64,000 nt of DNA from Naegleria gruberi (taxonomy: Eukaryota). The position numbers were made by a program, and so were the translations under genes. The first letter of the stretch is position 1; every line of letters starts with the position of its first letter. The notes beneath the pieces are model-generated. The model did not search any database, was not told where the DNA came from, and was given only the letters and a program-made list of their open reading frames with translations. Below are positions 11,727 to 31,267 of this stretch, piece by piece. The stretch lies in assembly GCA_000004985.1 (NCBI GenBank), contig GG738915.1, one strand, 5' to 3'.

Positions 11727-12896
11727 ATGATTCTCTCCTTCCTTCATCTAATCACCTGGTTTACTTTTCGCACATTAGTTCTACTCTTCTCCATCTATCG
11801 TTTCATTATACAACTCTACAGAAAATATTACCATCATAGGGATGAGAAAAATCACCATGATGGAAAAGAAGCATCTAACGAAACAATATTATGGAACAAG
11901 TTGATGAAGGTTGGACTAAAAATTAATCATACTAGCGTGGCCAAGTTTAGAGAGGCTTCTAGAAAGCAAATACCTGTCTTGTATCCTAAATTGGAAGACA
12001 CTTTGTTTGGCTGTGCAACAAAAGTGGAAAAGATTGAAAAATTGAGAGATTCACATTGGATTACAATGAAAGGTTGTAAAGAAATGAAAAAAGTCATGCT
12101 CTTTATTCATGGAGGTGGCTTCATATCTGGCTCTTCTTTAGGACTTGATCTTCAATCAACAGTCTATGGTATTAAAGATTTCAATAAGAAACATAAGAAT
12201 AATGAAAATTTGATTAGCCATGTATTATCTGTTGAATACAGATTGGCAGAGGATCCTAAGTTCTACGAAACCATGGACAAGAGAACACTTACATCGAATC
12301 TCAGTGATCAATTAGAAGACTGCTTTGATTGTTTCAAATATTTAATTGAGGAAAAGAACGTACCAGCTAAGGATATTATAATTTCTGGTTTCTCTGCTGG
12401 TGCATGTCATTCTGCATTGTTGGTTTTGAAAAAATTGATGAACAGCCAGTCTTGGCCCCTTCATTCGGTTGCACTATTTTCAGCTCCTTGTGATTTATCA
12501 AATGCTGTAATTAAAGCTGACAAGTGGAAGGAAGAAAACGTTTTGATCTTGAATCAGGGACTTGTTAATTTGATTAATAGATGTATTCCAATTGAGGAAA
12601 AGAAGAATTATTCAATTCTTCAAACAATGTTGGAAATGGAGAAACAAGATGAATCATTTTATAACAAATTACTTCAAACCAAATGGGTAATCAACTATAG
12701 TAATCACGAAGAGCTAACCCCTGGAAATGAATACTTGTCTCAATTACTAGAATCTAAATCTCATCAAATTAATCCAAGACAAGTGGCTGTTGTTACAGAA
12801 AATCATCAAATGCATTGTTATCCAATTGCACAATATATATTATCTGAAGGAAACCGATCTATGGAAAAGGTATTGTTAGAGGCAATAAATCTCTAA
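11727..12896 (+). CDS. alpha/beta-hydrolase fold esterase/lipase (hormone-sensitive-lipase / arylacetamide-deacetylase-like), 389 aa
   Basis: caaaaaaaATG start. N-terminal hydrophobic anchor. HGGGF oxyanion-hole motif (LFIHGGGFISGS) and GxSxG nucleophile elbow (GFSAG). Confidence 0.75.
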   Translation: MILSFLHLITWFTFRTLVLLFSIYRFIIQLYRKYYHHRDEKNHHDGKEASNETILWNKLMKVGLKINHTSVAKFREASRKQIPVLYPKLEDTLFGCATKVEKIEKLRDSHWITMKGCKEMKKVMLFIHGGGFISGSSLGLDLQSTVYGIKDFNKKHKNNENLISHVLSVEYRLAEDPKFYETMDKRTLTSNLSDQLEDCFDCFKYLIEEKNVPAKDIIISGFSAGACHSALLVLKKLMNSQSWPLHSVALFSAPCDLSNAVIKADKWKEENVLILNQGLVNLINRCIPIEEKKNYSILQTMLEMEKQDESFYNKLLQTKWVINYSNHEELTPGNEYLSQLLESKSHQINPRQVAVVTENHQMHCYPIAQYILSEGNRSMEKVLLEAINL

Positions 12897-12979
12897 CTCT
12901 TTAGTCCAAAACAACATTATCTCCACAAGATTTTGACATTTACCACATCAAGATTGTAACTAACATTGAAAAAAACAGA

Positions 12980-14184
12980 ATGGTGGGATTGAATGGAACG
13001 AATACAACTATTGTAGCCGAAACATCTAGGGAAGAGTTTGGACCATTTCAGTACATGATTTTCGGGGTCAATATTCCCTTTCTGATAATATATTCAATTC
13101 TATTTAGTGCTACCTTGATTAGTTTGATATTTAGTGTAAAGAAACAAGATAAGACGAAACGGAAAACCTTCTACATCCTTATACTTGTTCTGTCCTTGCT
13201 GTTTGCAGTCATTTTGAATTTACTTACAAGAATTGGTTCCGAACTTTGCTATTTCGAAACTGATCCGGATAGACTTGAACGAATATATGGACTGGTAAAG
13301 GCTATTGACAGAACCATGATAGGATTTACAATGTCTATGGAACTTTTATTAATTGATTACATGTCTTTTCTATTGTAAGTACTTAGAATACTTTCCATTT
13401 TATGATGATTAGTTTGGAAACAACTTGGAAAGTGAGCCATTTCATCTAAGCATTTCAAAATTGCTAAGTTTATAACTTTTGGATTGGCTTTGGTTGTTTT
13501 GATTTGTTTAATGTTTCTTCTGAGTGGATTTTTAGTATTAGGAGGTTTCTTTTACGTTTATGGAAATCTTGGGATATTGAATACGATACTGACTTGTCTA
13601 TTTACTGCCTCTGCTATATTGGTAGGGGTTGCTTCCAGTATGCTCCTGATAAACACTCATGTAGGTTTCTAATTATTTAAAATTTGAACAAAATCAATTA
13701 GTATTGTGGGAAATTAATGCTGAAAACACTTGTTAATGGAAGAAAACAAGCCATGACACTTTCCTCATCTCCACCACAATTGAAAGAAAGTTATGATTTG
13801 AAAACAAGAGCCCTCAAGAAAGTGTGGAGTATCATTATTGTAGTTACACTAACTTCTGTTTTTCAGATTATTGGATTTATTTTCACTCCATTATCAATGG
13901 TGGATCATTTTATGATGAGTGGATTTCATATATGTTACAATATATCAATAATGGTCCTTGTAGTTCTGTATTTATATTTATATGGACCTGTGAAGGAATT
14001 TCAACAATTATTCGAAAAGAGAGATTCAAAAGATTTGACAACCATTGTGACTGCATTCGATTCAACAGGATCTGAACGGATTCAGAAAGGATTAACCTTA
14101 TCACATGTTTCGCCTGTGTCTCCTACCGATAGTGAAATAACCTCCAGGCAGGAATTGTTTCAGATAACAAATTCTAGGATATAA
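12980..14184 (+). CDS. seven-transmembrane (GPCR-like) receptor gene, ~3 exons, copy A
   Basis: ATG at 12980 (aaaaacagaATG). N-terminus carries N-glycosylation sites (NGT, NTT). Six to seven hydrophobic helices, short basic intracellular loops, a long K/R-rich third loop and a Ser/Thr-rich C-tail. Intron 13661-13701 (GTAGGT...TTAG, 41 nt) is phase-consistent and identical in copy B. Exon 1 ends in ttG|TAAGT (donor 13375). The phase-compatible acceptor is AG 13523-24 (150-nt intron). The AGs at 13450/13468 would give a cleaner 7TM topology but are 1 nt out of phase, so the first junction is uncertain. An alternative start is ATG 13511. Confidence 0.5.
13661..13701 (+). other. predicted 41-nt intron (GTAGGT...ATTAG) in the 7TM gene
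   Basis: Joins ..LLINTH to YCGKLMLKTLVNGRK.. Without splicing, two tiny ORFs 44 nt apart result. The sequence is identical in copy B (29827-29867). Confidence 0.5.
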
Positions 14185-14444
14185 CAAAATACTTTATTAA
14201 GACATGCTGAATAACTTTAAATCTGAATTATTATTAATATTAATATTCAATTCATTATGTTGCATAACAGTACTTTGCAACATTATGATGGAAACTTAAG
14301 TTGGAGCAGATTACAATAGTGGAATGATAAGACAAGATATCGTACTCAATACGTAAAGCTTCATAAATTAGAAAGGTGAAAATAGACTTCAATTCTTCCA
14401 CTATCCTTCTAATTATCCAATCACGACTTGAAAAAATCAAAAAA

Positions 14445-15631
14445 ATGAAAACACTCATCAAGGTACGATTTTTTCTTTTTCAAAATGATGATTAAATATT
14501 ATCTTTATGTCGGAATGGAAAATTCAAACTCTTATTTTCATAATTTTAATGTATTTAATATATTGATAGATTAAATATTTTCCTCCTGTCATTGTTGTCT
14601 TGACAGCAATTTCTCTCCTATTTTGTATAGTTTTGAGCTTGTTAACAGCACCAGATAGTGTTTCTAAACATTTGCCTGCCCTGAGTGAAACAGGAATATT
14701 TCCTCCGACAAAATATATTTTCACAGCATCCCTTGTGATACCATCCATATGTTTAATAGTTGGAGCAATTTTGCAATTTATTACAACAAAGGAAAAATTA
14801 ACCTCATTGGATCATCAACGACACACTTTAAATTATTGTAATGGATGTTTTAGAATGGGATGGTTGAGTATTGCATCCTGTATTTTTGCTTTGATTTCAG
14901 GATTTTGTTTACTTGGACTTGGAATTGTGCCAATTATGGGAGGAGAAGTTATTGATGATAGTTTACTTTCGAATTCTACTACCTCTACTACTGTATCTTT
15001 TATAACTAGTTCTACTAGTCAACAGTCAGCAGAATCAATTGAAATTCTTCCATATACCATCATTCACTTGATATTTACATTCTTCTTCATGTCAACTGTG
15101 TTTATTCACATGGTACTCAATACCATTTTCAATGTAGTAAGTGCAATTATAGTAATTATTTATTAAGCGGAATGCATCACCAATTCATTTAATATCCAGT
15201 TATATGATAAGAAAATTTCTCCAAAAAAGAAAATTCTCAATCCTTGGGTTATTGTAAAAATTGTCAGTTCATGCTCATTCTTGGTTGTGGGGCCAATCTT
15301 TAGTTTTATTATGGGAATTTTAGTTACAGTCACATGTTCTCAAACTGAGGTTATTAACAAGACTTGTCCACTCATGAATTTATTCCAATTATTCCTTGGA
15401 GCTCTATCTCAATACAGTATTGTTGCCTCAATTTTAGTTTTCATGCTCACTTACATGTATGATTTCAAAGATGCATCCATCAGTATTAATGCTGAAGATC
15501 CAAGAAATGATATTCAAGAGAGGTTATCAGGACTTTCCTTAGAAAAGGATTTTGAATTGGAAGAGGACGATCTTGGAGCAGGAGACACCAACAGATTACA
15601 CACTCTTGAGGATGAAGACGAATTTAATTAA
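14445..15631 (+). CDS. multi-pass membrane protein of unknown family, 3 exons (14445-14462, 14570-15136, 15200-15631), copy A
   Basis: Mini-exon ATGAAAACACTCATCAAG in aaaaaaATG context. 107-nt AT-rich intron GTACGA...TTGATAG, which carries a 10-bp indel in copy B. Exon 2 has no ATG for ~95 codons. GTAAGT at 15137, then AG 15198-99 (or 15228-29) continues the frame into exon 3. At least six TM helices, a Ser/Thr-rich extracellular loop (SNSTTSTTVSFITSSTSQQSAE) and an acidic C-tail. Confidence 0.5.
14463..14569 (+). other. predicted 107-nt intron
   Basis: GT...AG, ~80% AT, phase-consistent. Conserved with an indel in copy B (30726-30841). Confidence 0.55.
15137..15199 (+). other. predicted 63-nt intron (GTAAGT...ATCCAG); alternative acceptor 15228-29
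   Basis: The single in-frame TAA between two same-frame hydrophobic ORFs lies inside a GTAAGT-initiated segment. Confidence 0.45.
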
Positions 15632-16294
15632 GCAATTAATCATTCCATTAAAACGACAAGGAATTATGAAACTGGTTCATTAACATTTTTGGCAACTGAG
15701 AAGACATTATTGGCCACCATAATAATTGTAATCCTTTGTCATTTTAATGAAATTGATGACCAATAGTATGTTTCTATCTTGTTACTTACTAAATTTCCTT
15801 GTTTCTTGTCAATACCTTTCAAATAAAGAACGCAAACGTACAGATCTCATACTTCCAATTCGTTGTAACGTTCATCAGGTGAAGTGATGAACAAGAACAA
15901 CAACAAAATAATCGTTGCAATTACAATTTCAAAAAACAATCCTACACAACTCAACTGAAACCAATTCCTTTTTGATAATTTTATTATTATCACAACAACA
16001 TTAGATTCAGTAGTTTTTGAAGATAATACCTATCCTAAGGAATAGCATCATTCGTTTGAGCGCACAAAACTTCAACCAGTCCATCACTTCTTGTCCGTCT
16101 CACCAATATCTTACTCACCACCTTATCACACAAAATATCGTACTCGACAATACAATAATAACATCCGCACAATAGCAGCGGCTGTTCTTTAGGTGTATAT
16201 TAAAATATTCTTCCTTCATCATTTCTAACGGCCTGATTAACAACAAAACAACATACGAGACAAGTACATCAAGCAAAATTTATTTTAAAAAAAA

Positions 16295-18247
16295 ATGACG
16301 AGTCATCAAACAGGGCAGAGTTCGTCTTTTACGGTTCAGGCGGGCGGCTCATCCTCTTCTTCGACAGTAGTTCCTCCTTCGTCTTCATCATCATCGGGTA
16401 GTGCTGCTGATAGTAACAATAACAATTTGAAGGCAACTAGTGAAAATCATAAAAATGATGATGCCAAATCAACAACAAGTACAAATAGTAGTTTACATCA
16501 ACAACAACAACAACACAGCGAATTAAACATCTCTGGAAATAATTTAAATGTTTTGGTTACACCTGTAGCATTGGATGGAAAGTCTGAGCCATTATCTCCT
16601 ACAGCACACAGAAGAGCAACATCAATTTCATCAAATGGATATCCAGCAAATACACCAGCAACACCTGTCCATCCACAATTTACTTCTCATCCTGAAGATG
16701 ATAATGATTCTGATAATGGAAAATTAAAAGGAAAAAAGAACAAGAAGAAAAAGTGGCATGTCAATGCTATGGGTGAAATTGTTTACAAGGAACACAATTC
16801 ATATAATTTAATGCGTCAAATCCAAATGGGTATTAGATCTGCAATCAGTGAAATAACACCTAAAAAACAAAAAGATGTACTATTACTTAAGGATTTTACT
16901 AATATTAACAAAATGCCGTTTCCAGAAAAGGGATCAACAAGAACACCTCCACACGAATTCCCATTCTTTGATTTTTATGATTACTCACCATTTCCTTTTA
17001 GACATTTGAGAGAACGTTTTGGTATTGATGCTTCCAATTATCTTGTTTGTTTATGTCATGAACTGTCTCTCTCAATTCTTGGCACTCCTGGTAAGAGTGG
17101 TGCTCTCTTCTTTTTCTCTGCTGACATGCAATACATGTTAAAGACTGTAACAAAAAAGGAATCAAAATTCTTGAGAAAAATTTTGCCAGATTACTATAAC
17201 CATGTTATGGCCAATCCAAACACTCTCATTACTCGTTTTTATGGAATGTATAGTATAAAACCTCGAGGAGGTAAAAATGTAAGATTTATTGTCATGAACA
17301 ATGTGTTTGACACAACAATGTATGTTTCTGAGAGATACGATTTAAAGGGTTCAACTGTTGGACGAGAAGCATCAGAGAAAGAAAAAAAGAGAGAAACACC
17401 AATTTATAAGGATTTAGATTTTTTGAGGAGAAGTAGCAAGTTAAAAGTTGGACCTCAAATGAAGAATCTCATTATGAATCAACTTCAAGTTGATGCTACA
17501 TGGTTGGAAAAGATGAAGATCATGGACTATAGTTTACTAGTTGGTGTTCACAGATTGGATCCTGAATTGGATGCAGAAGTATTGAAAGAAGCTCAAAATT
17601 GTAATATCAAATTGTCAGATTCTGACATTCCTTCGGAAGCTTTTACTACTGTATTTAATCATGGCTCAAGTGTGGCTTCAAGTTCAATGACTTCTACATC
17701 ATACTTAAACGGAACCGATCAGGGAACAGGCGCTTCATCTTCTTTAAATACTACAAATCCAATTTCAGATCATCATGACCAAGTTGTAAATAGTACAGAT
17801 ATTGCCATTGAGGTTAGTGATGAATCTCATCCAACATTGAATGGTTCATCAAGCACCAAAACCATAGAAAATACACCATCAACACATCATCCAACAAGTA
17901 TGTCAACTACTACACAGGACAGCAGAAAGAGTAGTGAAAGCACCTCCTCATTCTTTGGAAGATTTATGAATCACAGACTGAGTGTTTCTTTGAAAAAACA
18001 CTACAGAGGTCCACGTGCCTCTCTATTCCAACAATTCCATGGTGGTACACTGTCACTTCCTTTAGAGGATGGTAGCCGTGAAATTTACTACTTTGGTATT
18101 ATTGATTTGTTACAAAAATGGAATAACAAGAAACAAATAGAAAATATTTTCAAGGGCCTTGTAGCTGACAGAAACCAAATTTCTGCAGTCTCACCAAAGA
18201 ATTATGCAATGAGATTTGTAAAATTCTTGGGAGATGGTTTACAATAA
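16295..18247 (+). CDS. phosphatidylinositol-4-phosphate 5-kinase (PIPK family, Mss4-like) with an S/Q-rich N-terminal extension, 650 aa
   Basis: aaaaaaaaATG start. PIPK catalytic-core motifs GKSGALFFFSADMQYMLKTV, RFYGMY, RFIVMNNVF, MDYSLLVGVH and the C-terminal IIDLLQ block. Confidence 0.85.
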   Translation: MTSHQTGQSSSFTVQAGGSSSSSTVVPPSSSSSSGSAADSNNNNLKATSENHKNDDAKSTTSTNSSLHQQQQQHSELNISGNNLNVLVTPVALDGKSEPLSPTAHRRATSISSNGYPANTPATPVHPQFTSHPEDDNDSDNGKLKGKKNKKKKWHVNAMGEIVYKEHNSYNLMRQIQMGIRSAISEITPKKQKDVLLLKDFTNINKMPFPEKGSTRTPPHEFPFFDFYDYSPFPFRHLRERFGIDASNYLVCLCHELSLSILGTPGKSGALFFFSADMQYMLKTVTKKESKFLRKILPDYYNHVMANPNTLITRFYGMYSIKPRGGKNVRFIVMNNVFDTTMYVSERYDLKGSTVGREASEKEKKRETPIYKDLDFLRRSSKLKVGPQMKNLIMNQLQVDATWLEKMKIMDYSLLVGVHRLDPELDAEVLKEAQNCNIKLSDSDIPSEAFTTVFNHGSSVASSSMTSTSYLNGTDQGTGASSSLNTTNPISDHHDQVVNSTDIAIEVSDESHPTLNGSSSTKTIENTPSTHHPTSMSTTTQDSRKSSESTSSFFGRFMNHRLSVSLKKHYRGPRASLFQQFHGGTLSLPLEDGSREIYYFGIIDLLQKWNNKKQIENIFKGLVADRNQISAVSPKNYAMRFVKFLGDGLQ

Positions 18248-18307
18248 TAAATTAATTTATTTTGAATTTCTTACAAATTGTTTATCTCATTCCTAAATGA
18301 AGTTGTT

Positions 18308-20065
18308 CTATTGTACAAGGCATTTACTACCGCTTGGTGTTGGCTTCTTTCCCAAGATATTCATCTTTGTAAATGGAGTCCTGGTTGTTGGACAACTTGC
18401 AATTAAAATATCACCATTTCCATCTCCTCCAATTAAAGCTTCATCATCCATTTCCAAACTCATTACTCCACTTGTAGGAATAAAGTTTACAACTTTCCAA
18501 GGACAGTTCTTAGTATCATTTCCAACCATCACTCCAGATTTGATAAATTTATCAATTTGTGGTGCTTCAGCAAGTTTTGAACCATTCAATGATTGAGCAA
18601 ATTCATCTGTTGTCATAACGACAACTCCAAGCTTGGATCCAACCACAATCTTTTGACCATCAAATTGTAATCCTCTAATAGCTCCCAATCTGAAAACATC
18701 CATATCATATAATATAGAAGGATCTGGATTTTCCTCTTTTGATGAAGAAGATGAAGAAACTTTTCTATAGTCAATAATTTGAATAAATCCTCTATCAGAT
18801 CCAGCTAGGAATAGATATTTTCCTGCCGATGGATCAAAGCATGAAGCATTGACTTCATAGAGATATGCATCAGTAAATACCTCTCCCACAACATTGGAAG
18901 ATCTTGTATCGAAAATCTTGATATACTTATCTGCAGAGGCAGTAAGAAAGAGATCTGAATATCTTCCAGATGGATTACAATCGACATCATAGATTGCACT
19001 CTTGTGAGTGGAAACACCATTCTTATCACAAATCAAAGTTTTCACTTCTTTCATAGTGGAAGCATCGAATATTTTGGCCACACCATCAGCTCCACCAGTT
19101 ACAAAGCTACTTTCATTAATAATTCTCAAATTCCATATACCATTCTTGTGATTGTGGGGAACACGTCCGATATTCTTCATAATTTCCCCATCCTCAGCCT
19201 CTGGATCATAGGAACCATAATTCAATATATTGGAAAATCCTCCAGTCACTAGAAAGTTTGGAATTCTATGTTGTTGAGTATCAATGCACCACAGCAAACT
19301 TCTCTCTTCATAAGTTTCCTTCCATTCATATTTATATTCTACATTGCTTACATATTGAGTTTCATCATCAAATGCAGCTTTTCCATTCACTTCAATATCA
19401 TAAAAATTAACACTGTGAGAACAGGTCATTAAATGAATCTTGTTATGATCACTGGTCGATCTTAGGAATGTCAGATAATTAATTCCAACACCAGGATCTG
19501 GTAATTCAGGTTTCTTCTCACAAGAAGCAAATGTCTTTTTATGATTGATAAAGAAATCATTTTCCATTTGATTTTCCTCTCCTTCTCTATATCCTCTAAA
19601 TTTATACCATCCCTTATAGAGTGTCAAATGTTCATATTTGAAAATTTCATAGAGTGAATGCGCATTTGTATTCTCAAAAACTCGACGTCTTACTATACTT
19701 TTTTGTGAGGGAGGAATTTCAAGGTGGGTTTTTTCATCATTTGTTGAAGATGAATTATTTTCATTTCTAATAAATTGTTTCCACAATGCATCATTCCTCG
19801 ATGTATACAAAAAGGTTGAATTTACCAATGAAATATTTAAAATAATTTCCCTATATTCAAGGAATGAAAATATGAGAATTAAAACATCTTCGGGAACATC
19901 AGTTACATGATCCAATGAAGAATCACCCAATTTAAATGGTCCTATTTCATCTACATTATTAGTAGAAACTACTCTTTCCGAAACATCATTTAAAACATTT
20001 TCATTTGGTTGATCATCAACATCTTCATCAACATGAGAGGATGAACCTGTTGGTTGTTGAAGCAT
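18308..20065 (-). CDS. F-box / WD40-repeat protein, 585 aa
   Basis: Reverse-strand aaaaaaaATG. F-box DVLILIFSFLEYREIILNISLVNSTFLYTSRNDALWKQF. WD-like repeats (GGADGVAKIFD, TASADKYIKIFD). Confidence 0.7.
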   Translation of the reverse strand: MLQQPTGSSSHVDEDVDDQPNENVLNDVSERVVSTNNVDEIGPFKLGDSSLDHVTDVPEDVLILIFSFLEYREIILNISLVNSTFLYTSRNDALWKQFIRNENNSSSTNDEKTHLEIPPSQKSIVRRRVFENTNAHSLYEIFKYEHLTLYKGWYKFRGYREGEENQMENDFFINHKKTFASCEKKPELPDPGVGINYLTFLRSTSDHNKIHLMTCSHSVNFYDIEVNGKAAFDDETQYVSNVEYKYEWKETYEERSLLWCIDTQQHRIPNFLVTGGFSNILNYGSYDPEAEDGEIMKNIGRVPHNHKNGIWNLRIINESSFVTGGADGVAKIFDASTMKEVKTLICDKNGVSTHKSAIYDVDCNPSGRYSDLFLTASADKYIKIFDTRSSNVVGEVFTDAYLYEVNASCFDPSAGKYLFLAGSDRGFIQIIDYRKVSSSSSSKEENPDPSILYDMDVFRLGAIRGLQFDGQKIVVGSKLGVVVMTTDEFAQSLNGSKLAEAPQIDKFIKSGVMVGNDTKNCPWKVVNFIPTSGVMSLEMDDEALIGGDGNGDILIASCPTTRTPFTKMNILGKKPTPSGSKCLVQ

Positions 20066-20584
20066 TTTTTTTCTACTATTAAAACAACACTACGAGAAAG
20101 AACATTGAACAAGCAAGTTGGTAAGAGATGTTTTCGTATGACGTACTCAGGACGTCAGCAGAACATTGTAAGTGAGGGAATTTTTCAAATTCATTCATCA
20201 TTCTAAAGCAATTCACAGAAGAGTGTTACAAGTTTCTCAATTACAAATTCAAACAACCATTTCTTGGAAATGTTCCCTTCTTTTTCGTCATTTACAAGGG
20301 AAACTCAAGAACATTTCTGTCAGAATAATCTGCTGGTATGCAATGTGGCAACTGGTTTCTGCCATCTCCCAATCAAATAGTAAACAAGACATGAGAATAT
20401 TAAAATCCCGACCACCTAAACCTGTTGAATATCTTCTATCTCTTCTTTTTGGGGTTGCCGTCAAGAAAACCGGTTATGCTCTGACCAATCTGAAAGCCAA
20501 GCTGATTGTATATTGGATAGTGGTGCGGCTTAAAGATGAAAGTAAGGCAACAGACATAAATGATTACATTGTCTTTCACAATTG

Positions 20585-21397
20585 TTATAATTTATTTCTC
20601 GAATTAATGAATTGTTTCTTTTTGAGTTCGTAACAATCCATCCAACTATTGAAGAAAATATTAATTTCGTCATCAGTGTAATTTTCAGATGGATGGCACG
20701 AAGACAAAGGAGAGGAAGGAGAAGAAAGGGAATCGAATTGGGAGGTTATGGAGCAAGTTGTTGTGGAGGAGTATGGTGTAATTGTCGAACTAGTTAATGG
20801 AATGACTGGTGTGGAAACTTCAGAAGAAGTTTGAACAATATTAGAATTAGAACGGTGTCTAGTGTTTTGAGTCGTACGGGAATCAACAGTAGCAACAGAT
20901 GACGGCTCTTCTGAATCGCTTTGAGAGAATTCATCACAACTAGCACTTATTTCAGAGGAACTCTTTGGAGTAATAGGCATACCAGAGATTTCTGTGGTAA
21001 TATCATTCAAATTGCTGGTGCATGGAGTAATGATGATTGGTGAGTAAATTGAATCTTGTGATTGAAGATTGAAAGAGGAGCAAACTGGAGTTAAAACAAG
21101 AGGAAAGTCTTCCAAGTGACGACGTTTGGATTTTTGAGTTTCCTCCAATCTGTTGGATGGTCGTTTTGTGGACTTGTTTTCCCTCTTCCTCATTGAATAC
21201 TCCTTACCATTCTTACACACAGTTAGGATGAGAGAAGGTTTTGGACTCGAATTACTCTGCAGACAGGACTGCAGAGTTTTGGTAGTTGATGATTTTTCAG
21301 TTTCTTCACAACTGATGAGTGAAGAACATGAAACTTTACATTGTTGTTGAACATCAATAACATTCTGTTCAACTTGGCATAATCTTGCATGAGCCAT
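20585..21397 (-). CDS. Ser/Thr-rich hypothetical protein (~271 aa)
   Basis: Reverse-strand ATG at 21395-97 in aaaaaaacaacaATG context. The frame stays open up to the 154-N gap, so the true N-terminus could lie in the gap. Low-complexity S/T/P-rich sequence. Confidence 0.45.
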   Translation of the reverse strand: MAHARLCQVEQNVIDVQQQCKVSCSSLISCEETEKSSTTKTLQSCLQSNSSPKPSLILTVCKNGKEYSMRKRENKSTKRPSNRLEETQKSKRRHLEDFPLVLTPVCSSFNLQSQDSIYSPIIITPCTSNLNDITTEISGMPITPKSSSEISASCDEFSQSDSEEPSSVATVDSRTTQNTRHRSNSNIVQTSSEVSTPVIPLTSSTITPYSSTTTCSITSQFDSLSSPSSPLSSCHPSENYTDDEINIFFNSWMDCYELKKKQFINSRNKL

Positions 21398-21416
21398 TGT
21401 TGTTTTTTTCAATGGG

Positions 21417-21570
21417 NNNNNNNNNNNNNNNNNNNNNNNNNNNNNNNNNNNNNNNNNNNNNNNNNNNNNNNNNNNNNNNNNNNNNNNNNNNNNNNNNNNN
21501 NNNNNNNNNNNNNNNNNNNNNNNNNNNNNNNNNNNNNNNNNNNNNNNNNNNNNNNNNNNNNNNNNNNNNN
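21417..21570. other. assembly gap (154 N)
   Basis: Run of n. Truncates the Ykt6 gene and possibly the 5' end of the gene at 20585-21397. Confidence 0.99.
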
Positions 21571-21918
21571 TAATGTATATGTTGACTTTGGATATTTCTT
21601 TTCATACTCAACAAGTACTTTATAGAGTAATGAAAAAGCAACTCTAGCTGGATAATCACTATCTGTAACAATAACAGCACTTAATTGACTATCCACTCTT
21701 GTTTGTACATAACAAGTGTATTCATCCTTGACAATTTGTTGTCTTGTTCCTGGAGGATTTTTATCCGATAATAATCTAGTAATAAATACAACATATTCAC
21801 GAACAGTACCACGTTGAAAGAATCCGAATGAAGATAATTCATCATAGCCGGCCAAAATAACTGATTTGCTATTTGCTGTTGTTGGCTTGTAGAGAACGTG
21901 AATGGCCAATAATTTCAT
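21571..21918 (-). CDS. YKT6: Ykt6-type longin-domain SNARE, 5' part only (3' end lost in the assembly gap)
   Basis: Reverse-strand ATG at 21916-18. MKLLAIHVLYK...SSFGFFQRGTVREY...YPARVAFSLLYKVLVEYEKK closely parallels the Ykt6 longin domain (MKLYSLSVLYK..SSFSFFQRSSVQEF..YPSRVAFTLLEKVLDEF). The SNARE motif and CCAIM tail are missing because the ORF runs into the N-run at 21570. Confidence 0.8.
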
Positions 21919-22278
21919 TTTTTATTATTAGAGTTTTAAATTAATTGAATACCGACAGCATCATCATGCTACAACAATACATATTCTAAGTTTATGTTTG
22001 CCTCAAATGGAAAGAACATGTCTTTCCAATTAATATCTTTCTTCATCATCATCATGATTATCAATATGAATTAATCTCAAATAATAATATATATTTCAAT
22101 TTCACCCTTAACAAAGAATTCATACTCAAAGCTCCACATAATAATATTAATATTCTCAATACCTCACATTAATCTCTAATGTGAATGCAACTTTCATGTT
22201 TGCATCTCATCTCAATCCAAAAAAATCACTGACGATAAACTATTCAGGAATTTCTAAATCAAAAAAAAGGCCTCACTT

Positions 22279-22416
22279 CCCGTACGAGGCTTTATTAGCT
22301 GACTTGTTAAAGTACGAACCAAAGTAACCTCTCCACACTAACTTTATAGTTTAGTTGAACAAGTACGCTGTGATGATCATCTATTTATGTATTGGCAATT
22401 TGAAAAACCATTCTTG
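22279..22416. promoter_or_regulatory. conserved non-coding block set P (CCCGTACGAGGC ... GTTAAAGT-n7-AAAGTAACCTC ... AACCATTCTTG)
   Basis: Shares three short blocks with 27674-27803. It lies between the Ykt6 start and the 3' end of the gene at 22838. Function unknown. Confidence 0.25.
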
Positions 22417-22669
22417 TCAATCTCAATATGTATTATTCAATCAAAAATCCAAAAATGAGTATTGGCATTTGAATTTTACAAATATGTGATTCCGTAAATT
22501 GATAAATACACTTTATTATACAAATAACAGTTTACAAAGAGAATATTCTTCAGTCGTGTGATTCACAACTTGAAAAAAATATCGGCACACATCTTACCAT
22601 CATCATTGTGTCTTGGTCGCGACCACACAGAACAAACAGAGGATTGTGATGATCACAATAATATACAGT

Positions 22670-22795
22670 ACTAATAATGATAATAATAATAGTGATAAAA
22701 TAGATAATAATAATATGCTGAATAATAGTGATAAAATAGATAATAATAATTAATAATAATAATAATAATAATATACAGTGAATAATATATAGTAG
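22670..22795. repeat. (TAA/ATA)n microsatellite with a ~44-bp unit (aatagtgataaaatagataataataat) repeated twice
   Basis: Directly visible tandem structure in the 3' flank of the gene at 22838-24499. Confidence 0.8.
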
Positions 22796-22837
22796 TAGTC
22801 AGTTGGTAATTAATAATATCCAAGAACAGTGATCCTG

Positions 22838-24499
22838 TTATTTAAGCAGCGGAATGATATCAAATTCATCATCAGCAGTTCCAACTTGTTGAACATCTCT
22901 CTTTTGATTGTCTCTGAAATTTTCCCATTGATCATCTGTCTTGACAACTTTAAAACAGTAATGGTCGAGAATATGTTCAAAATCTTCTTTCCACGCATTC
23001 TTAACTCTGGTTATGTTGAATTGTTTACAAATGAATCGTATTGCAACTCCAGGTTGCCTGGTTTTGGCTAGGAATCCCATTTGTTCGGAAGTGAAAAGAA
23101 CTCTTCTTCCTGCCAATCTAATTTCAGCTGGTTGAGATATTATTTTGTACTCTTTCTTGACCTTATCTACATAATTTGTAAAAAGCTTGTAGAAAAGCTT
23201 GTGAATTTTCTTTTCAGCCTTCAATTCTACCTGTAATTGCTTAATTTCTGCATCCTTCTCTGCTAGTTGCTGCAAAAGATAACTATTAACAAACATTGGT
23301 TGACTATTGAACATTGGTTGGTTAAATGATTGGCTAGTTTCAGGATTATTCATCAAGCCAAGGAAACTAACTTGATTTTCATCAACAAATGAACTACCAC
23401 TAATGTTATCACCGACAGTAATACTACTACTACTACTACTACTACTACTGCTACTGCCAGCACTACCAGCACTACCAGCACTACCAGTACTGCCAACACT
23501 ACCAGTAGAAAAAATTGGTTGCTCTCTATTATTGGTCTGTTGTGAAATCAAAGGTTGAGGACAAGTAACATCTTTTGGAGTTGTGGAATTATTCAACATT
23601 GATGGATTCACATTGGATGATGATGAACTTAAATGAGGAACTATGGAAGTGGTAACCTTATTTTCAAATATGACACTATTGTCAACTTCATCACTTTCAT
23701 TTTGAAACTTGTTTTGGAATTGAGTAAAGGTCATTCTATTGGTGGCTGCCTCATAATTAACACTCATGCAGGACAGGTTCCAATCTTCTATTTGATTGGG
23801 AAGCAATTCATCACTGTAGTACTTGTTACAATCTGGTACCAGTGATGTAATTACCACTCTAACTTTGCCAGATTCATCACACCCAGTCATAGTGTAGCCA
23901 TTAGCAATATGAACGAGTTGTTTATCCAATTCTATACCCAAACATACATTGGTACCAAAGGAAGGGGTTGAAGTGAGCTGATTTCTTGTCATTAAGTTTG
24001 CTTTGACAAAGGAGTCCTTATCCAAAAAGCTTTTCAATTCATCCTTATGACTGAGGATTGTACTCTTGTGTTCTAGAATGGTGGTTAACAGAGCTGTCTT
24101 GTTGCCAGAGTATGACAAACTAGTAGAGCTGTATTTACTACATGATATGATGAAAGCCTTCAAAAAGTCACTTTTAAATTTCAATTCTTCCAACAATTTA
24201 ACAGTACAATTAGTGTGCTCTAGATTTGCAATTAATTTGGTGAAGGATTGATTATCACTTGCTTTCAGACCATCTTTCCATGGTAATGGTTTAGCCTTTT
24301 TTAAAGGTTGTACAACTTGAATTTGTTGATCAACAGTGGATGATGATGTAATAGTTTGTGATGTTTGTGTAGGAGGATGGAATTGAAATTGTTGAGATGA
24401 TGATATTGTGGCAGGTGTAGGAAGGCTAGCCTTTCTCTTCTTACCTCTCTTTGTTTTAGTTTGGTTCGGATCGAACTGAACGAAATGCAGTGAAGACAT
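22838..24499 (-). CDS. low-complexity hypothetical protein, 553 aa, probably nuclear
   Basis: Reverse-strand aaaaaATG. KRGKKRK basic NLS-like cluster. Poly-Ser and GSAGSAGSAGS tract encoded by (AGT/ACT)n repeats at ~23400-23500. Coiled-coil-like segment. No family recognised. Confidence 0.55.
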   Translation of the reverse strand: MSSLHFVQFDPNQTKTKRGKKRKASLPTPATISSSQQFQFHPPTQTSQTITSSSTVDQQIQVVQPLKKAKPLPWKDGLKASDNQSFTKLIANLEHTNCTVKLLEELKFKSDFLKAFIISCSKYSSTSLSYSGNKTALLTTILEHKSTILSHKDELKSFLDKDSFVKANLMTRNQLTSTPSFGTNVCLGIELDKQLVHIANGYTMTGCDESGKVRVVITSLVPDCNKYYSDELLPNQIEDWNLSCMSVNYEAATNRMTFTQFQNKFQNESDEVDNSVIFENKVTTSIVPHLSSSSSNVNPSMLNNSTTPKDVTCPQPLISQQTNNREQPIFSTGSVGSTGSAGSAGSAGSSSSSSSSSSSITVGDNISGSSFVDENQVSFLGLMNNPETSQSFNQPMFNSQPMFVNSYLLQQLAEKDAEIKQLQVELKAEKKIHKLFYKLFTNYVDKVKKEYKIISQPAEIRLAGRRVLFTSEQMGFLAKTRQPGVAIRFICKQFNITRVKNAWKEDFEHILDHYCFKVVKTDDQWENFRDNQKRDVQQVGTADDEFDIIPLLK

Positions 24500-24546
24500 T
24501 TTTTAAAAAAAACACCAACTCCACAACAAGTGACACTTTCACCATA

Positions 24547-27019
24547 ATGAAAGAGAAGAGCAATCATTCTAAGGCTTGGTCTGAATCAACTTCATACAAC
24601 GTTTACAAGAGGAGTAGTACGAATAAGCAACAACAGCCGAATCGTGATGGCCCCAACCATATGAATATTTCTTCTTTTAATATCATCAATGGAGAGTGCA
24701 ATGCTCAACCCTGCAGATTGTTTGATAGGCATCAAGAACAGATTACCAAAGACTATCTTCCAACTTTCATTAGGGATCTGAATGCTTATATGCAAGCAAA
24801 CTCTATCAATTACCAACTCAATTGTCCTCAACAACAACAACAACAGCCTCAACAGCCTCAACAACAACAACCATCATTACCTCAACAAATACCCATTCAT
24901 CCAATAGATAATTCATCACTACCTGCTTCTCCATCATCATCACCAGCATCAACACCATCATCATCAATATCAAATGGAGAATTAGGAGGACTGGACATTA
25001 TGCATGACGATGAATTATTAGATAATCTTGATTTCATGGAAGTTTGGAGAGAGAATTCACTGAAAACACTAAGAAAGCAACTAACAAAGAAAAAGGATTG
25101 CTCTATTGGCAATAATAACCAGCTATCCGATCTATTGTTCGATTTATTATCATTCTATACCGATTCCAACATTTCAAAGGTTAACATGAGACGAATAGTT
25201 GATCTCTTTAACAAGTACTCGGCGATTGGAAAAAAGATTCCAACCCTAGATACTCTCATCAGTAGAATTCACAATGTCAACAATGAGTATGAAAAGGTGT
25301 TTTATTGTTCAAAGCATTTGACAATTATTAAAGGTGAAACTCTGAAGGCTTGTTCCTGCGAGCAGTGTAGTGTTGAGGGTGTATTGAACAAGGAGAATAT
25401 TCAACACTTTTGGACTAAAAGTATTGCCTCGTGCATATCGAATATGGTTGATAGGGTAGGCTTGAGAAGATTCCAATCACACCTATCTGCAGCTACTGAT
25501 ACGAACATTCCTACAGTGGGCCAGAAACATTTCATTAAGGACTGTGTTGATGGGGTCGAGTATAAGAGAATTACAGACAAGTGGGTCATTCGAGATGATC
25601 CCAACACTATTTGCCTCACCATTAGTGCTGGCACTGATGGTGGCTCTGTCAACAAGTCCAACTCTAAATCCATCAATCCTCTCTTCTTTTGGATAAATGA
25701 GATTGGATTGAAACACAGATTTTCCTATCCATTGACTTCATTGGCAGCATATGCAAACCACAAAATACCCTATCAAATACTCTTGTCCAAATTTATAGAT
25801 GAACTCAATGAATTGGACAAGGGTTTGACTATTGTTACCAAGGGAGGATGTAAATTCTTTCTAAAAGTAAGTTGATTGTGTGATTCATTGGACAACAAGC
25901 CAATTATTATTATTATATACATGTGAAACAAATAATTGGATTTGTTACTAGGTTCGCCTCTTTCAAATGATTGTCGATTTGGTTGCTGCAAAAGATCTCT
26001 TGCAAATCAATGGTCACTCGGGCCTGTGTGGTTGTAGATGGTGTCTACATACAGGAGAAAAGAAGGGAGAAAACACTGGTGTATTGTATTGTGTAGGAAA
26101 TTCGAGTTGTAATAGTGGAGTCAATAGAGTTTGGAATAACATGATGCCACAGTTTTGCAAGTTGCAAAAAAATGAGATTTCTTCCTTCGATGGTGTGATT
26201 GGCATTTCAATTCTCCTCAAGCTCAGCTATTTTAGATGGACTACTCAGGTAGCCTGTGATATTTTGCACAATCTTTTAGAGGGTCTTTGTAAAAAGATTT
26301 TGAAGAATATTTGTTCATTGTACAAGACTTTAATTCCCAGCATTGATGGTAAGTATTGTGGTGAAGGAAAAATATGAACTCAACCCCTTGGTGTTTAACA
26401 ATTGAAAGAACGCATCAAACTTATTGAAACTCCATCCATGTATCACAGAGAGATTCGTTCCTTGAATGAGGCTGCAAAGTTCAAAGCTATTGAATACTAC
26501 ATGTTGTTTGCCTATTGTAAGGATGTTTTCAAGAATATTATTTCTGAAAACCACTTTAACATTTTAAAAAGTGTCGAAACTTTTATAGGACTCATCATGA
26601 ATCCTAGTGAGAAGAGTGAGCAAGCCAAGGCAAGTCTATTGCAAATGGCATTCAACTTGCTGCGAAGTGTGGAAATTGAATTTGGTGAGGAGGATATTAC
26701 AATGGCCTCTCATACTGTTCTTCACTTTCCATTGTAAGTACTCTACTAGTTATTCAGAATGCAACAATTTCATATAATATTGATTGTTTTAAAACAAGAT
26801 CGATATGGAATTTGGGCCCTCTCTATACCAAACTCTACGTTCATGTTGGAGGATTTGATGGGCTCTCTTACTTCCTCCATCTATGGAGGAAAGGCCAACA
26901 TGGATCATAAGGCTTTGGAGAATTGGTCCATTCATCAAATGACCAGTTTGAAAAGGGTGAGACAATTCACACTTCCAATACGAACATGGTTTGTATCTTT
27001 TTTTTTCAAAGGTTGCTGA
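24547..27019 (+). CDS. transposase-derived protein, Transposase_21 + DUF4218-like (CACTA/EnSpm - KDZ superfamily); 4 exons (24547-25866, 25952-26348, 26409-26733, 26758-27019)
   Basis: Poly-Q/S N-terminal region, then CxxC clusters. The SAGTDGG...S.WP...INE...P block, and FFLK|VRLFQMIVDLVAAKDLLQINGHSGLCGCRWC (parallel to the EnSpm TnpD motif F.LRA.L.W.I.D.PA..L.G....G..C..C), are restored only after removing an 85-nt GTAAGT...TACTAG intron. Further GTAAGT introns of 60 and 24 nt keep the frame into a DUF4218-like tail (YGIWALSIPNSTFMLEDLMG). The assignment is from remembered family motifs, not a database search. Confidence 0.55.
25867..25951 (+). other. predicted 85-nt intron
   Basis: GTAAGT donor overlapping the ORF end. 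TTGTTACTAG acceptor. Splicing restores a conserved transposase motif. Confidence 0.6.
26349..26408 (+). other. predicted 60-nt intron
   Basis: GTAAGT...TTAAC...GAAAG, phase-consistent (phase 1). Confidence 0.5.
26734..26757 (+). other. predicted very short (24-nt) intron
   Basis: GTAAGTACTCTACTAGTTATTCAG. Phase-consistent and needed to continue into the DUF4218-like region. The length is unusually short, so it could instead be a disabling lesion. Confidence 0.35.
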
Positions 27020-27116
27020 CACTCATAATGTTTAGATATTGTTAAATTTTCCAAGGGTATTTTTCAAATTGTTAAACGGTAAGTAGTTTCATGTCATGAT
27101 AATGATTAATGATTGT

Positions 27117-27240
27117 ATCACTATCACCACCACCACCACCACCACCACCACATGAATATATTATTATCAATAATTCGTCGTCTCATCATCAACATCATCA
27201 TCTCATCATCATCTCATCAACATCATCATCATCAAATAGA
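27117..27240. repeat. (CCA)n followed by (CAT/ATC)n trinucleotide microsatellites
   Basis: caccaccaccaccaccaccacca, then runs of catcat/atcatc. These generate the poly-P/H/S low-complexity ORF 27109-27408. Confidence 0.8.
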
Positions 27241-27673
27241 CAAAAGGAAGGAGGATGGAAATTATTAAACTTGTTGGATAATTCAATCATGATTCAGGAT
27301 CATCTTTCCACTATTGATGCCATTCCTTGCTTTGCTGTTACTGGTGGTTCTTCTAGTGGTTCTCCTCAATACCTTCCTGTACACAGAAATGACATGTTTC
27401 TATTGTAATGTGTTGAATAATAAATTTAATGAAATATTTATTGTAATATTATATTTAATTATTACATTGTAATGACAATTGAATATTTATTGAAAACATT
27501 GTAATAACATTCCAAGTTGAATCCACTTTAATCTTTACATTTTGGGTTTTATTCAAGTCCAAATTGGTCAATTGAAAAAGTATAATAGGCAATGATTAAT
27601 TGGGATTCAGAATCGATAGAGTGTACAATAAGCTTACTTTTCAAAGAACGCAAGCGACCTCTCTTCCTGTACT

Positions 27674-27803
27674 CGTTAAAGTTAGGGTGAAAGTAACCTC
27701 CCAACGTACTTTCAAAAAAGCCTCGTACGGGTTCCTTCACCATCAAACCACATACAGAGAAAATTTACAGTAATTTTTAAGGATATTAGGTTGAACCATT
27801 CTT
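27674..27803. promoter_or_regulatory. conserved non-coding block set Q (GTTAAAGT-n7-AAAGTAACCTC ... GCCTCGTACGGG ... AACCATTCTTG), 135-265 bp upstream of ATG 27939
   Basis: Same blocks as 22279-22416. The GTACG palindrome block is in inverted orientation. Spacing between block 1 and block 3 is ~100 versus ~119 bp. Confidence 0.25.
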
Positions 27804-27938
27804 GATCGGGCACTTCTTAAGGAAACTCTGAGAGTATATCATTGTGAATTATTGAAGATTGTTTAAATTATTAACTACATCCCGAAGAAGGAGTGTAGAA
27901 ATTGTATCATATTGTATAGATAGCTAAACATAAGAAGG

Positions 27939-29631
27939 ATGAGGAATTTTCGACAATACAAATCATCGACTGTACAGGTATCTCCACGAAATGGTGGGTA
28001 CGTTCATCATCCTCATCCTCCATCAACAGTGAAACATTCAGCTGCTGATGGAATGAATGCATCTCCCAACAAGGGAGAGAAAAAGACATTTTCTGAAACA
28101 ATGAGTGACAACTCTTCACAGCCCAACACTAGTGCTGTTGAACCATTGTGGCTGTATGGATATGCATACTTTTCATTGGATAAAACTATATGGGGATTGT
28201 TATTGGATTTGGAGAAAAAGTTTGATGCTGGTCAAATTGACAAGATTCAATCACTTCCTTCACCTTCATCCTCTCTTAATAGTGGTACTTTCACTTTTCA
28301 ACCTCCAAAACCAAGTGTGAGGATAAAACAATTGAAACCAACAAATATTGAGCTTCTGAATCAATCATTTATGGATTATTCTAATGCCAACTTTAAAGAG
28401 TGTTTGAAGAATATTCAAATTTTGATAGAACGAAAGATTTCCATGTTTACCGACACAACAGAGGACAGATATGAACTGAATTTATCTTTATCTCTATTTT
28501 CAATTATCATTCTGAATTATTCAACTGTTTTGTCAACTCAATACCAGAGCTTTCACAACAGCATGGAACTATTGAAAGTTGGAGAAATGATGCTGAAACA
28601 CTTCAAGAGCGACCAATTGAAAGATTATTTCACATCTCTATTCAGCAGTGCCATGTGTAATTATTACAAAAAAAGAAAAAAATATAACATGATGTACAAA
28701 TATTCCAAACAAGCCTATGAAATGTACAGTCAAACAGGAACAAGCATTTATGCTCAATATATTTTGCAAACGTATGCCACTAGTTGTCTCTTTCGCAAGA
28801 AGTATGAGGAAGCAATTGAGTGCTTTGAAAATAACATTTTTTTGTACAAAAACCAAATTCCAAGCACTTCTGTACAAACAAGCTTGCTAGATTATTTCAA
28901 TAGAATTTTGACATTCATTTGCGACAATGAGTATTTCATAATTATTAATAAGTGCTTTAATACCTTCAATTATGGTGTGGCACTATTTGAGACGAAACAG
29001 ATGGTTCCTAGTCGATACTACCTCTTTCAAGCTATTGATATAATGAATCACCACCTCAGTTCCCACCACGATATAATTATAGAGAAACGATGGCTCAAGT
29101 CCATGATTAAGGTGTATAGAATTGTGACCTCTATTTGTGAAAACCAACCATACAATGATTGCAACATTTCCATGCATGCAATTTTTAATAAGGGAAAACC
29201 AATGGTGGATCCACTCGAGCCAGCATTTAAAAACGAAAGGTACTATATTACCACACTGAACAAGGCAATACACTATGTCATTCTAGAAAATGAAAGACAA
29301 GAAGTTATGGCAAGAGCAGAGATTGACGCCGAGGAATATAGGAGAGTGAAGAAACTGGTTAGCATACTCCCCCTTTTGAAAGTGGATCCATATTTTGGTA
29401 AAATTATGAGCATTGAAAAATCAGTTAAGGAGAAGAAACAAACCATTCCACAGGCCATGTCCTTTGCTAAGAAAGCACTCAAATCTTCGAAAATATTTCT
29501 CACTCCTCTAAAAAGACCTGAAGAAACAACATTGGATGAAAGTAATAATATCCTCAATAATTCATTTCTACTCGATGATTATGGATATATTTCAAAGACA
29601 CCTTCAGAATCACCAAGATCTGCTATCATTA
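27939..29631 (+). CDS. hypothetical protein, >564 aa, 3' end lost in a 50-N gap
   Basis: ATG at 27939. Long uninterrupted ORF running into the N-run at 29632. S-rich N-terminus. No family recognised. Confidence 0.55.
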
Positions 29632-29681
29632 NNNNNNNNNNNNNNNNNNNNNNNNNNNNNNNNNNNNNNNNNNNNNNNNNN
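29632..29681. other. assembly gap (50 N)
   Basis: Run of n separating the gene at 27939 from repeat copy B. Confidence 0.99.
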
Positions 29682-30350
29682 TCTTCTGAGTGGATTTTTA
29701 GTATTAGGAGGTTTCTTTTACGTTTATGGAAATCTTGGTATATTGAATACCATACTGACTTGTCTATTTACTGCCTCTGCTATATTGGTAGGAGTTGCTT
29801 CCAGTATGCTCCTGATAAACACTCATGTAGGTTTCTAATTATTTAAAATTTGAACAAAATCAATTAGTATTGTGGGAAATTAATGCTGCAAACACTTGTT
29901 AATGGAAGAAAACAAGCCATGACACTTTCCTCATCTCCACCACAATTGAAAGAAAGTTATGATTTGAAAACAAGAGCCCTCAAGAAAGTGTGGAGTATCA
30001 TTATTGTAGTTACACTAACTTCTGTTTTTCAGATTATTGGATTTATTTTCACTCCATTATCAATGGTGGATCATTTTATGATGAGTGGATTTCATATATG
30101 TTACAATATATCAATAATGGTCCTTGTAGTTCTGTATTTATATTTATATGGACCTGTGAAGGAATTTCAACAATTATTCGAAAAGAGAGATTCAAAAGAT
30201 TTGACAACCATTGTGACTGCATTCGATTCAACAGGATCTGAACGGATTCAGAAAGGATTAACCTTATCACATGTTTCGCCTGTGTCTCCTACCGATAGTG
30301 AAATAACCTCCAGACAGGAATTGTTTCAGATAAAAAATTCTAGGATTTAA
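29682..30350 (+). CDS. 7TM GPCR-like gene, copy B (5' part lost in gap); exons 29682-29826 and 29868-30350
   Basis: About 99% identical to 13516-14184. Differences in the coding part are 5 synonymous and 2 nonsynonymous (K/Q, T/K). Same 41-nt intron. Confidence 0.5.
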
Positions 30351-30707
30351 CAAAATACTTTATTAAGACATGTTGAATAACTTTAAATCTGAATTATTAC
30401 TAATATTAATATTCAATTCATTATGTTGCATAACAGTACTTTGCAACATTATGATGGAAACTTAAGTTGGAGCAGATTACAACAGTGGAATGATAAGACA
30501 AGATATCGTACTCAATTGATTTCTTACTAATTACACTAATTGGTAATTATGCTTGATTCCAGTTCTACAGTATTGTATGGATTCAAAGATTGTAAAGTTT
30601 CATTTCTATTTACTAGTATCAAACAATTAGAAAGTTGAAAATAGACTTTCAATTCTTCCACTATCCTTCTAATTATCCTTTGAATCACGACTGAAAAAAT
30701 CAAAAAA

Positions 30708-31267
30708 ATGAAAACACTCATCAAGGTACGATTTTTTCTTGTTCAAAATGATGATTAAATATTATCTTTGTGTCGGAATGGAAAATTCAACTCTTATTTT
30801 CATAATTTTAATGTATTATCATGTATTTAATATATTGATAGATTAAATATTTTCCTCCTGTCATTGTTGTCTTGACAGCAATTTCTCTCCTATTTTGTAT
30901 AGTTTTGAGCTTGTTAACAGCACCAGATAGTGTTTCTAAACATTTGCCTGCCCTGAGTGAAACAGGAATATTTCCTCCTACAAAATATATTTTCACAGCA
31001 TCCCTTGTGATACCATCCATATGTTTAATAGTTGGAGCAATTTTGCAATTTATTACAACAAAGGAAAAATTAACCTCATTGGATCATCAACGACACACTT
31101 TAAATTATTGTAATGGATGTTTTAGAATGGGATGGTTGAGTATTGCATCCTGTATTTTTGCTTTGATTTCAGGATTTTGTTTACTTGGACTTGGAATTGT
31201 GCCAATTATGGGAGGAGAAGTTATTGATGATAGTTTACTTTCGAATTCTACTACCTCTACTACTGTA
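30708..31267 (+). CDS. multi-pass membrane gene, copy B (3' part lost in the 31-kb gap); exon 1 30708-30725, exon 2 30842-31267
   Basis: Identical mini-exon MKTLIK. The intron carries a 10-bp insertion relative to copy A. Exon 2 shows one synonymous difference. Confidence 0.5.

Follow-up and report, generated by a model that had tools for sequence, protein, structure and literature searches.

The window analysed here is a stretch of 64,000 nucleotides from the Naegleria gruberi NEG-M assembly (contig GG738915.1 of GCA_000004985.1). It contains two neighbouring membrane-protein genes, parts of which recur on the same strand about 14.7–16 kb downstream in a small contig that lies between two runs of N. 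The features are as follows:

12980–14184, + strand: 7TM-family gene, copy A (exons 12980–13374, 13413–13660 and 13702–14184; introns 38 and 41 nt long; without a Pfam family)
13432–13437, + strand: 2-bp frameshift of the 7TM gene in the reference (GTGAGCC in the window versus GTGAGAGCC in the N. gruberi-like contig L006)
13516–14995, + strand: copy A, the counterpart of the island within contig 1 (21.4 kb; self-BLASTN and alignments)
14351–14365, + strand: large spacer indel, copy A side (15 bp; alignments)
14445–15631, + strand: Frag1/DRAM/Sfk1-family gene, copy A, intact (exons 14445–14462, 14570–15136 and 15200–15631; Pfam PF10277)
27924–29630, + strand: open reading frame of 569 codons, still open at the 50-N gap, without a Pfam match; an unrelated gene cut exactly where the island is inserted
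29632–29681: 50-N gap separating contig 2 from the island
29682–31267, + strand: copy B, which makes up the whole island contig (1,586 bp) and is collinear with copy A throughout
29682–30350, + strand: 7TM gene fragment, copy B (end of exon 2 29682–29826, intron 29827–29867, exon 3 29868–30350; without start codon and without exon 1)
30517–30624, + strand: large spacer indel, copy B side (108 bp; its sequence does not recur elsewhere in the window)
30708–31267, + strand: Frag1-family fragment, copy B (exon 1 30708–30725, intron 30726–30841, exon 2 from 30842, ended by the gap)
31268–62617: 31,350-N gap directly 3' of the island

A third run of N (154 N) is found at 21417–21570. The unique neighbours of copy A are an abhydrolase gene upstream and PIP5K downstream, and the PIP5K protein is 100% identical to the one recorded at NCBI for N. 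gruberi on a scaffold of 260,018 bp. An Rfam scan of positions 1–31267 gave no matches, and a reading of the ORFs at 24460–26734 as transposases was rejected, as they have no Pfam match even at E≤10.

In the reference, the 7TM gene carries the 2-bp frameshift listed above, whereas the L006 version of positions 13432–13437 holds the reading frame (…LETTWKVRAISSKHFK…). Splice models with canonical GT-AG introns were rejected, as every combination lost conserved sequence; they failed because of this frameshift. It is only after correction of the frame that the 375-aa protein fits its family, with homology along the full length, shared motifs, and about seven hydrophobic segments (six clear ones by Kyte-Doolittle hydropathy and a weaker one at about residues 112–133). 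On these comparisons the gene belongs to a multigene family specific to Naegleria and Willaertia. An exhaustive search with exon 1 alone as the query gave 18 relatives at E≤1e-3, and at least four paralogues exist in N. lovaniensis. The family consists of uncharacterised multi-pass membrane proteins, among them C9374_009517, C9374_005944, C9374_010845 and C9374_004508 in N. lovaniensis and ABK040_002571 and ABK040_003444 in Willaertia. The 7TM protein is collinear with them at 23–28% identity, with a similar length and pattern of hydrophobic segments, and shares with them the motifs PF, TRIGAE, K..DR, F.ETTRK..A.S, K..ALKK and Q.IGF; the reference copy differs from the family in its frameshift. 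No Pfam family was matched, and no evidence was found that the protein is a G-protein-coupled receptor. It is worth noting that a word-indexed search with the 7TM protein returned no matches at all, missing even ORF P0124, which is 100% identical and was later recovered by the exhaustive search, so that word-indexed negatives are unreliable for queries rich in transmembrane segments.

The second gene encodes a multi-pass membrane protein of the Frag1/DRAM/Sfk1 family. It matches PF10277 over its N-terminal half with 55 bits against a cut-off of 30.3 (E=1.1e-14), although, as a difference from that family, strong matching ends at about position 113 of the 220 in the profile. Orthologues are found in N. 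lovaniensis (51%), N. fowleri (52%) and Willaertia magna (38%), and the N. lovaniensis orthologue, P0121, matches PF10277 as well. In N. lovaniensis a single orthologue exists, at the syntenic TPT-Frag1 locus. An annotated N. gruberi protein for this gene was absent from the collection searched.

Copies A and B form the only repeat pair that self-BLASTN finds in the window. Positions 13516–14350 match 29682–30516 with 98.8% identity (10 mismatches, no gaps, E=0) and positions 14366–14995 match 30625–31267 with 96.7% identity (E=0), which is far beyond chance. An earlier note, made by reading the letters alone, had described a collinear duplicate at these places, carrying part of a 7TM-type gene, the intergenic spacer and the 5' part of a multi-TM gene, and both self-BLASTN and a global alignment bear this out. 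The share of the 7TM gene was given as the 3' two-thirds; it is indeed the 3' part, but amounts to 56% of the protein (residues 167–375 of 375). Of the Frag1-family protein, copy B holds the 5' part, 148 of 338 residues (44%).

In the global alignment the copies differ by 18 substitutions and seven indels, and all seven indels are non-coding. The spacer and intron indels noted earlier resolve into five in the spacer (+73, +20, +1, +4 and −1) and two in the Frag1 intron (−1 and +10). The largest had been read as 19 versus about 113 bp; the event is the same, but the alignments place it as 15 bp in A against 108 bp in B, which leaves arms of copy B of 835 bp to the left and 643 bp to the right. 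The count of about six synonymous and two nonsynonymous coding changes proved exact. The two amino-acid changes (K to Q at 13723, T to K at 14168) both sit in variable columns of the 7TM family alignment, and the splice sites are intact in copy B. Synonymous differences stand at a pS of 0.025 and nonsynonymous ones at a pN of 0.0025, with non-coding substitutions at about 2.4%. The coding differences show purifying selection, with a dN/dS of about 0.10 and a synonymous bias of p=0.003, in tests that have only eight coding substitutions to work on. A truncated, dead partial copy would rarely show a nonsynonymous to synonymous ratio of 2:6 (p=0.027), a ratio that agrees with constraint on both sequences.

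How large this divergence is can be judged against independent N. gruberi-like contigs, L001 and L006, from run ERR1078381 (PRJEB11402), which represent wild N. gruberi-like DNA. The window differs from L001 by a pS of 0.016, a pN of 0.002, 12 of 537 non-coding positions and seven indels, again all seven non-coding, and from L006 by about 1.5%. By this comparison the divergence between A and B matches that between the window and independent contigs of its kind, lies inside the range of within-species polymorphism and is indistinguishable from allelic or between-strain variation. In its first 114 bp, copy B has private alleles at two of three variant sites relative to both A and L006, which fits either an allele or a duplicate. 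Exact-product look-ups returned no contig on record for 7TM exon 3 (in its A and B versions), Frag1 exon 2 or Frag1 exon 3, in an index that does not contain the N. gruberi scaffold; JGI metagenome scans gave no relatives of Frag1 exon 2 or 7TM exon 3, and neither exact-protein look-ups nor metagenome scans found a contig spanning the spacer.

Copy B had been described as an island of about 1.6 kb between a 50-N gap and a 31-kb run of N, and this is what is found (1,586 bp, 50 N and 31,350 N). Homology to A spans all of it, with about 100% identity at either end, and it has no unique flank. Being bounded by gaps on both sides, it lacks the unique flanking sequence within contiguous assembly that a segmental duplication should have, and low-stringency BLASTN of the adjoining contigs against the flanks of copy A gave only chance matches. 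Contig 1 runs without any break through the supposed repeat boundaries of copy A. The first base of copy B corresponds to a point 536 bp past the 7TM start codon, and a full 7TM copy would require at least that much additional sequence. Because of this, and because the 569-codon ORF is still open as it enters the 50-N gap, a complete second gene pair would have no room there, an argument that depends on a gap size which is possibly a nominal or floor value, not a measured one.

Taken as a whole, the island is most likely an ordinary assembly artefact and not a new gene copy. Copy B probably represents the other allele of a single heterozygous 7TM-Frag1 locus at 13.5–15.0 kb, as a haplotig that was scaffolded in by mistake. 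Young paralogues, or a repeat at which the assembly broke, and diverged haplotypes, including a mis-scaffolded haplotig, had been set side by side in the earlier note without a choice between them. That pair of readings is well founded, and the choice narrows towards the haplotig because the source is Sanger-sequenced and reported to be heterozygous, the divergence is at within-species level, unique flanks are missing and there is apparently no room beside the truncated gene. In the literature, the NEG-M assembly is described as a 2010 Sanger whole-genome shotgun draft with 1,977 contigs in 784 scaffolds, and N. gruberi is reported as heterozygous within a genus of mainly heterozygous diploids. 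The Sanger technology and the heterozygosity are taken from this literature; the assembly is one without phasing or purging of haplotypes. As is usual for haplotigs in heterozygous drafts, copy B is a small contig whose whole length is represented at a second locus of the assembly; it has no unique flanks and lies beside gaps, and it diverges to an allelic degree, chiefly through non-coding indels. Unlike the usual case, where haplotigs end up as separate small scaffolds, it is threaded into the scaffold of its partner about 15 kb away.

Such an arrangement could have come about in the following way. Sanger reads from the second haplotype that crossed the spacer and intron indels (93 bp, 10 bp and smaller) would not have been mergeable with the consensus of haplotype A, and would have been left to form a small contig of their own that extends about one read length beyond the indels in each direction. 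Where the second haplotype differed from A only by about 1% SNPs, its reads would have been absorbed into contig 1. With its true position occupied, the orphan contig may then have been moved by the scaffolder to the nearest gap that was large enough, and placed there flush left behind a nominal 50-N spacer. Both arms of copy B are indeed short enough for a single Sanger read to reach the indel cluster. There are also points that speak against a haplotig: that copy B was placed downstream of A, and not left unplaced, means that some clone links backed that neighbourhood, and a collapsed true repeat would yield the same geometry of a read-length island.

The strongest competitor is a genuine young segmental duplication, which we regard as unlikely. 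Here, a second 7TM-Frag1 segment would exist about 16 kb downstream, its more similar parts collapsed into contig 1 and its indel core surviving as the island. Two collinear copies on the same strand, about 99% identical, within 16 kb and with mostly synonymous coding differences are what such a duplication looks like; contigs commonly break at repeat boundaries during assembly, and the scaffold assigns copy B a definite position, 14.7 kb from A. The 7TM gene is moreover a member of a multigene family that has several paralogues in N. lovaniensis, and a synonymous bias would suit two functional paralogues. On the most far-reaching version, the duplicate would be very young (dS about 0.025), both copies would still be under purifying selection and the rest of the second copy would be hidden in the gaps, a combination to which we give an equally small chance. 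A full copy would not fit a gap of 50 N, in which the missing 5' sequence of the 7TM gene and the 3' end of the 27924–29630 gene would both have to be accommodated, and a partial, dead copy agrees poorly with the substitution pattern. Also against a duplication are that copy B has nothing outside the homology, that contig A is unbroken at the supposed boundaries, that the divergence is not separable from the allelic or between-strain level, and that the syntenic locus of the sister species N. lovaniensis holds a single Frag1 orthologue. Heterozygous indels are far commoner than duplications this young.

A further source of copy B could be a second genotype in the sequenced DNA, whether from a sub-population of the culture, from contamination by another strain or from an additional homologue if the line is polyploid or aneuploid. 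Copy B is as far from A as the window is from the wild N. gruberi-like DNA of ERR1078381, and aneuploidy and ploidy variation have been reported for the genus Naegleria. The window itself gives no sign of contamination. NEG-M is a clonal axenic laboratory strain, and we consider this origin highly improbable; its practical outcome would in any case equal that of the haplotig reading, i.e. one locus without a paralogue. That copy B was built out of copy A reads that were chimeric or of poor quality, with no real sequence difference behind it, might be suggested by its tiny size and its gaps on both sides, but is effectively refuted, since sequencing errors do not respect reading frames, and here the indels of 73, 20 and 10 bp are clean and avoid coding sequence, the splice sites are kept and the bias is synonymous.

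For users of the genome, the significance is mainly one of assembly and annotation hygiene, with no bearing on an open biological question. Counting the island as a paralogue would inflate gene-family and duplication statistics for N. gruberi. If an allele has been placed in the scaffold beside the 31-kb gap, the size and content of that gap become suspect as well. A Nanopore/Flye re-assembly of N. gruberi exists (PMC12695648), and Nanopore reads of Romero Charria et al. are deposited as BioStudies S-BSST1363. Were copy B a true duplicate after all, it would show a heterolobosean-specific membrane-protein family in the act of gaining a new member. As a haplotig, the contig would be a clean local sample of NEG-M heterozygosity, with about 1% SNPs and intergenic indels, filtered by purifying selection. 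By-products of the analysis are two apparently unannotated genes and the frameshift in one of them.

Within the window, self-BLASTN finds a single repeat pair, which is located among the genes and assembly gaps as follows:

13516-14350 against 29682-30516, first repeat block, 98.8% identical and gap-free
14366-14995 against 30625-31267, second repeat block, 96.7% identical
12980-14184, + strand, 7TM-family gene, introns of 38 and 41 nt
14445-15631, + strand, Frag1/DRAM/Sfk1-family gene, three exons, intact (Pfam PF10277, 55 bits, cut-off 30.3)
21417-21570, run of 154 N
29632-29681, run of 50 N
31268-62617, run of 31,350 N

With N-runs on both sides, 29682-31267 (copy B) is an isolated contig of 1,586 bp, and the whole of this island, end to end, aligns with copy A (13516-14995). 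Of the 7TM protein the island encodes residues 167-375, and of the 338-residue Frag1-family protein residues 1-148. A global alignment of the two copies gives 18 substitutions and seven indels, five of them in the intergenic spacer (+73, +20, +1, +4 and -1 in B), two in an intron (-1 and +10) and none in coding sequence. The 1,056 aligned coding sites differ by 6 synonymous and 2 nonsynonymous changes (pS 0.0246, pN 0.0025, dN/dS ~0.10). The earlier note, which had described collinear near-identical copies, the second stranded between assembly gaps, with about six synonymous and two nonsynonymous changes and with indels in spacer and intron, is thus correct in all material respects.

The amount of divergence to be expected within the species can be taken from an independent source. 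An exact-protein look-up with the TPT transporter (4715-5716) led to the ENA metagenome contig L001 (ERZ929261, run ERR1078381; 4,340 bp), which is 98.96% identical to window 2401-6735, with pS 0.016, pN 0.002, 12 substitutions in 537 non-coding bases and seven indels, all non-coding. A second contig, L006 (Logan ERR1078381_72756, 952 bp), corresponds to 12678-13629 at ~1.5% divergence. Between A and B the non-coding divergence is ~2.4%, again with seven non-coding indels, and the profile is indistinguishable from that of the window against these two contigs. L006 covers three of the A/B variant sites; it has the A allele at two of them and a third allele at the remaining one, so these sites are polymorphic within the species. 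An Illumina adapter remnant, AGACGTGTGCTCTTCCGATCT, stands at the start of L006. The run (PRJEB11402) is labelled as a metagenome; it contains DNA that matches N. gruberi NEG-M at 98.5-99% identity, pointing to a close relative of that strain, wild or from the laboratory.

In our view contig B is likely to represent the other haplotype of the 13.5-15.0 kb locus. Heterozygous indels would have caused the assembler to split it off, and it would then have been wrongly placed in the scaffold, flush with the left end of the closest large gap. The NEG-M assembly is Sanger-based (1,977 contigs in 784 scaffolds); heterozygosity is cited for N. gruberi, and the genus is described as "mainly a heterozygous diploid". 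The island has a left arm of 835 bp and a right arm of 643 bp around a 108-bp indel zone, and neither arm reaches further than one Sanger read from the indel cluster; this layout is expected if the reads crossing the indels were the only ones not to merge with the other haplotype. The B-specific insert was not found as a repeat elsewhere in the window. Both ends of B are still essentially identical to A, so the homology extends into the gaps, and even a low-stringency comparison shows no resemblance to A's flanks at the end of the preceding contig or at the start of the one after the large gap. These neighbouring contigs carry:

24460-25872, 25952-26374 and 26399-26734, + strand, three consecutive ORFs, no Pfam match even at E<=10
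27924-29630, + strand, 569-codon ORF, open into the 50-N gap, no Pfam hit
62619-63266, - strand, ORF open into the 31,350-N gap, no Pfam hit

Since the last two run open, both gaps cut genes, and the size of the 31-kb gap therefore rests on clone links only. The three consecutive ORFs, one of which contains a Cys-rich motif, GLCGCRWCLHTG, lie in the contig just before the island and could represent one gene that is split or degenerate.

A real young duplication is improbable, although a collapsed true repeat would yield the same island geometry. Counted from the start codon, B starts 536 bp into the 7TM gene; for the whole gene pair to be present a second time, the gap, scored at 50 bp, would have to hold well over 600 bp, and its scored length may itself be nominal. 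A truncated partial copy, on the other hand, would be expected to evolve neutrally, and if omega is set to 1 for the B branch and to 0.1 for A, two or fewer nonsynonymous changes among eight has p=0.027; the value is p=0.68 if both copies are constrained. Synteny also speaks against a duplicate. In N. lovaniensis TPT adjoins the Frag1 orthologue (contig L005, 8800-11369), each being single-copy, and the 10 kb on either side contain neither a 7TM relative nor a second Frag1 gene, so the ancestral state here is one Frag1 gene. The same contig carries PIP5K and the F-box/WD40 gene at a distance of ~30 kb. In the window, TPT and Frag1 are ~8.7 kb apart, separated by five genes (unknown, F-box, chromo/zf-PARP, alpha/beta-hydrolase and 7TM); this difference reflects a local insertion or loss after the two species split. 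The window's PIP5K (16295-18244) is 100% identical to an NCBI Naegleria gruberi protein, and ~72% to those of N. lovaniensis and N. fowleri. Haplotig or duplication, the finding is an ordinary one. Sequencing errors are rejected as the source of the A/B differences by the synonymous bias (binomial p = 0.0027 against neutrality); these are real evolutionary changes filtered by selection, both amino-acid changes falling in variable columns of the family alignment. N. gruberi has also been sequenced with Nanopore reads and re-assembled with Flye.

The 7TM gene matched no family in a Pfam search. When exon 1 was searched exhaustively, a family of hypothetical proteins of 360-470 aa was recovered, at least four in N. 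lovaniensis and two in Willaertia. Frag1 orthologues are 51% (N. lovaniensis), 52% (N. fowleri) and 38% (Willaertia magna) identical. Relatives are annotated in N. lovaniensis, N. fowleri and Willaertia, and no annotated N. gruberi protein for either was present in the collection searched, a negative that is weak for 7TM. The word-indexed protein search was blank for the 7TM query in collections containing a 100% identical 131-aa ORF, and it also missed several Naegleria paralogues (30-36% identical), so its negatives are untrustworthy for TM-rich queries. Both genes are probably absent from the 2010 gene set. Splice sites of the 7TM gene are canonical and kept in both copies; our initial splice models were unworkable because the reference has a 2-bp deletion in exon 2 (GTGAGCC at ~13432-13437 against GTGAGAGCC in L006; that is, GAG in the window and GAGAG in the independent N. 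gruberi-like contig). Copy B does not extend as far as this site. The deletion frameshifts an otherwise full-length, family-conserved membrane protein of 375 aa, which aligns with the family over its full length, conserved motifs included, once the two bases are restored. Either a pseudogenised allele or a consensus error could account for it, and the frameshift may explain the missing annotation.
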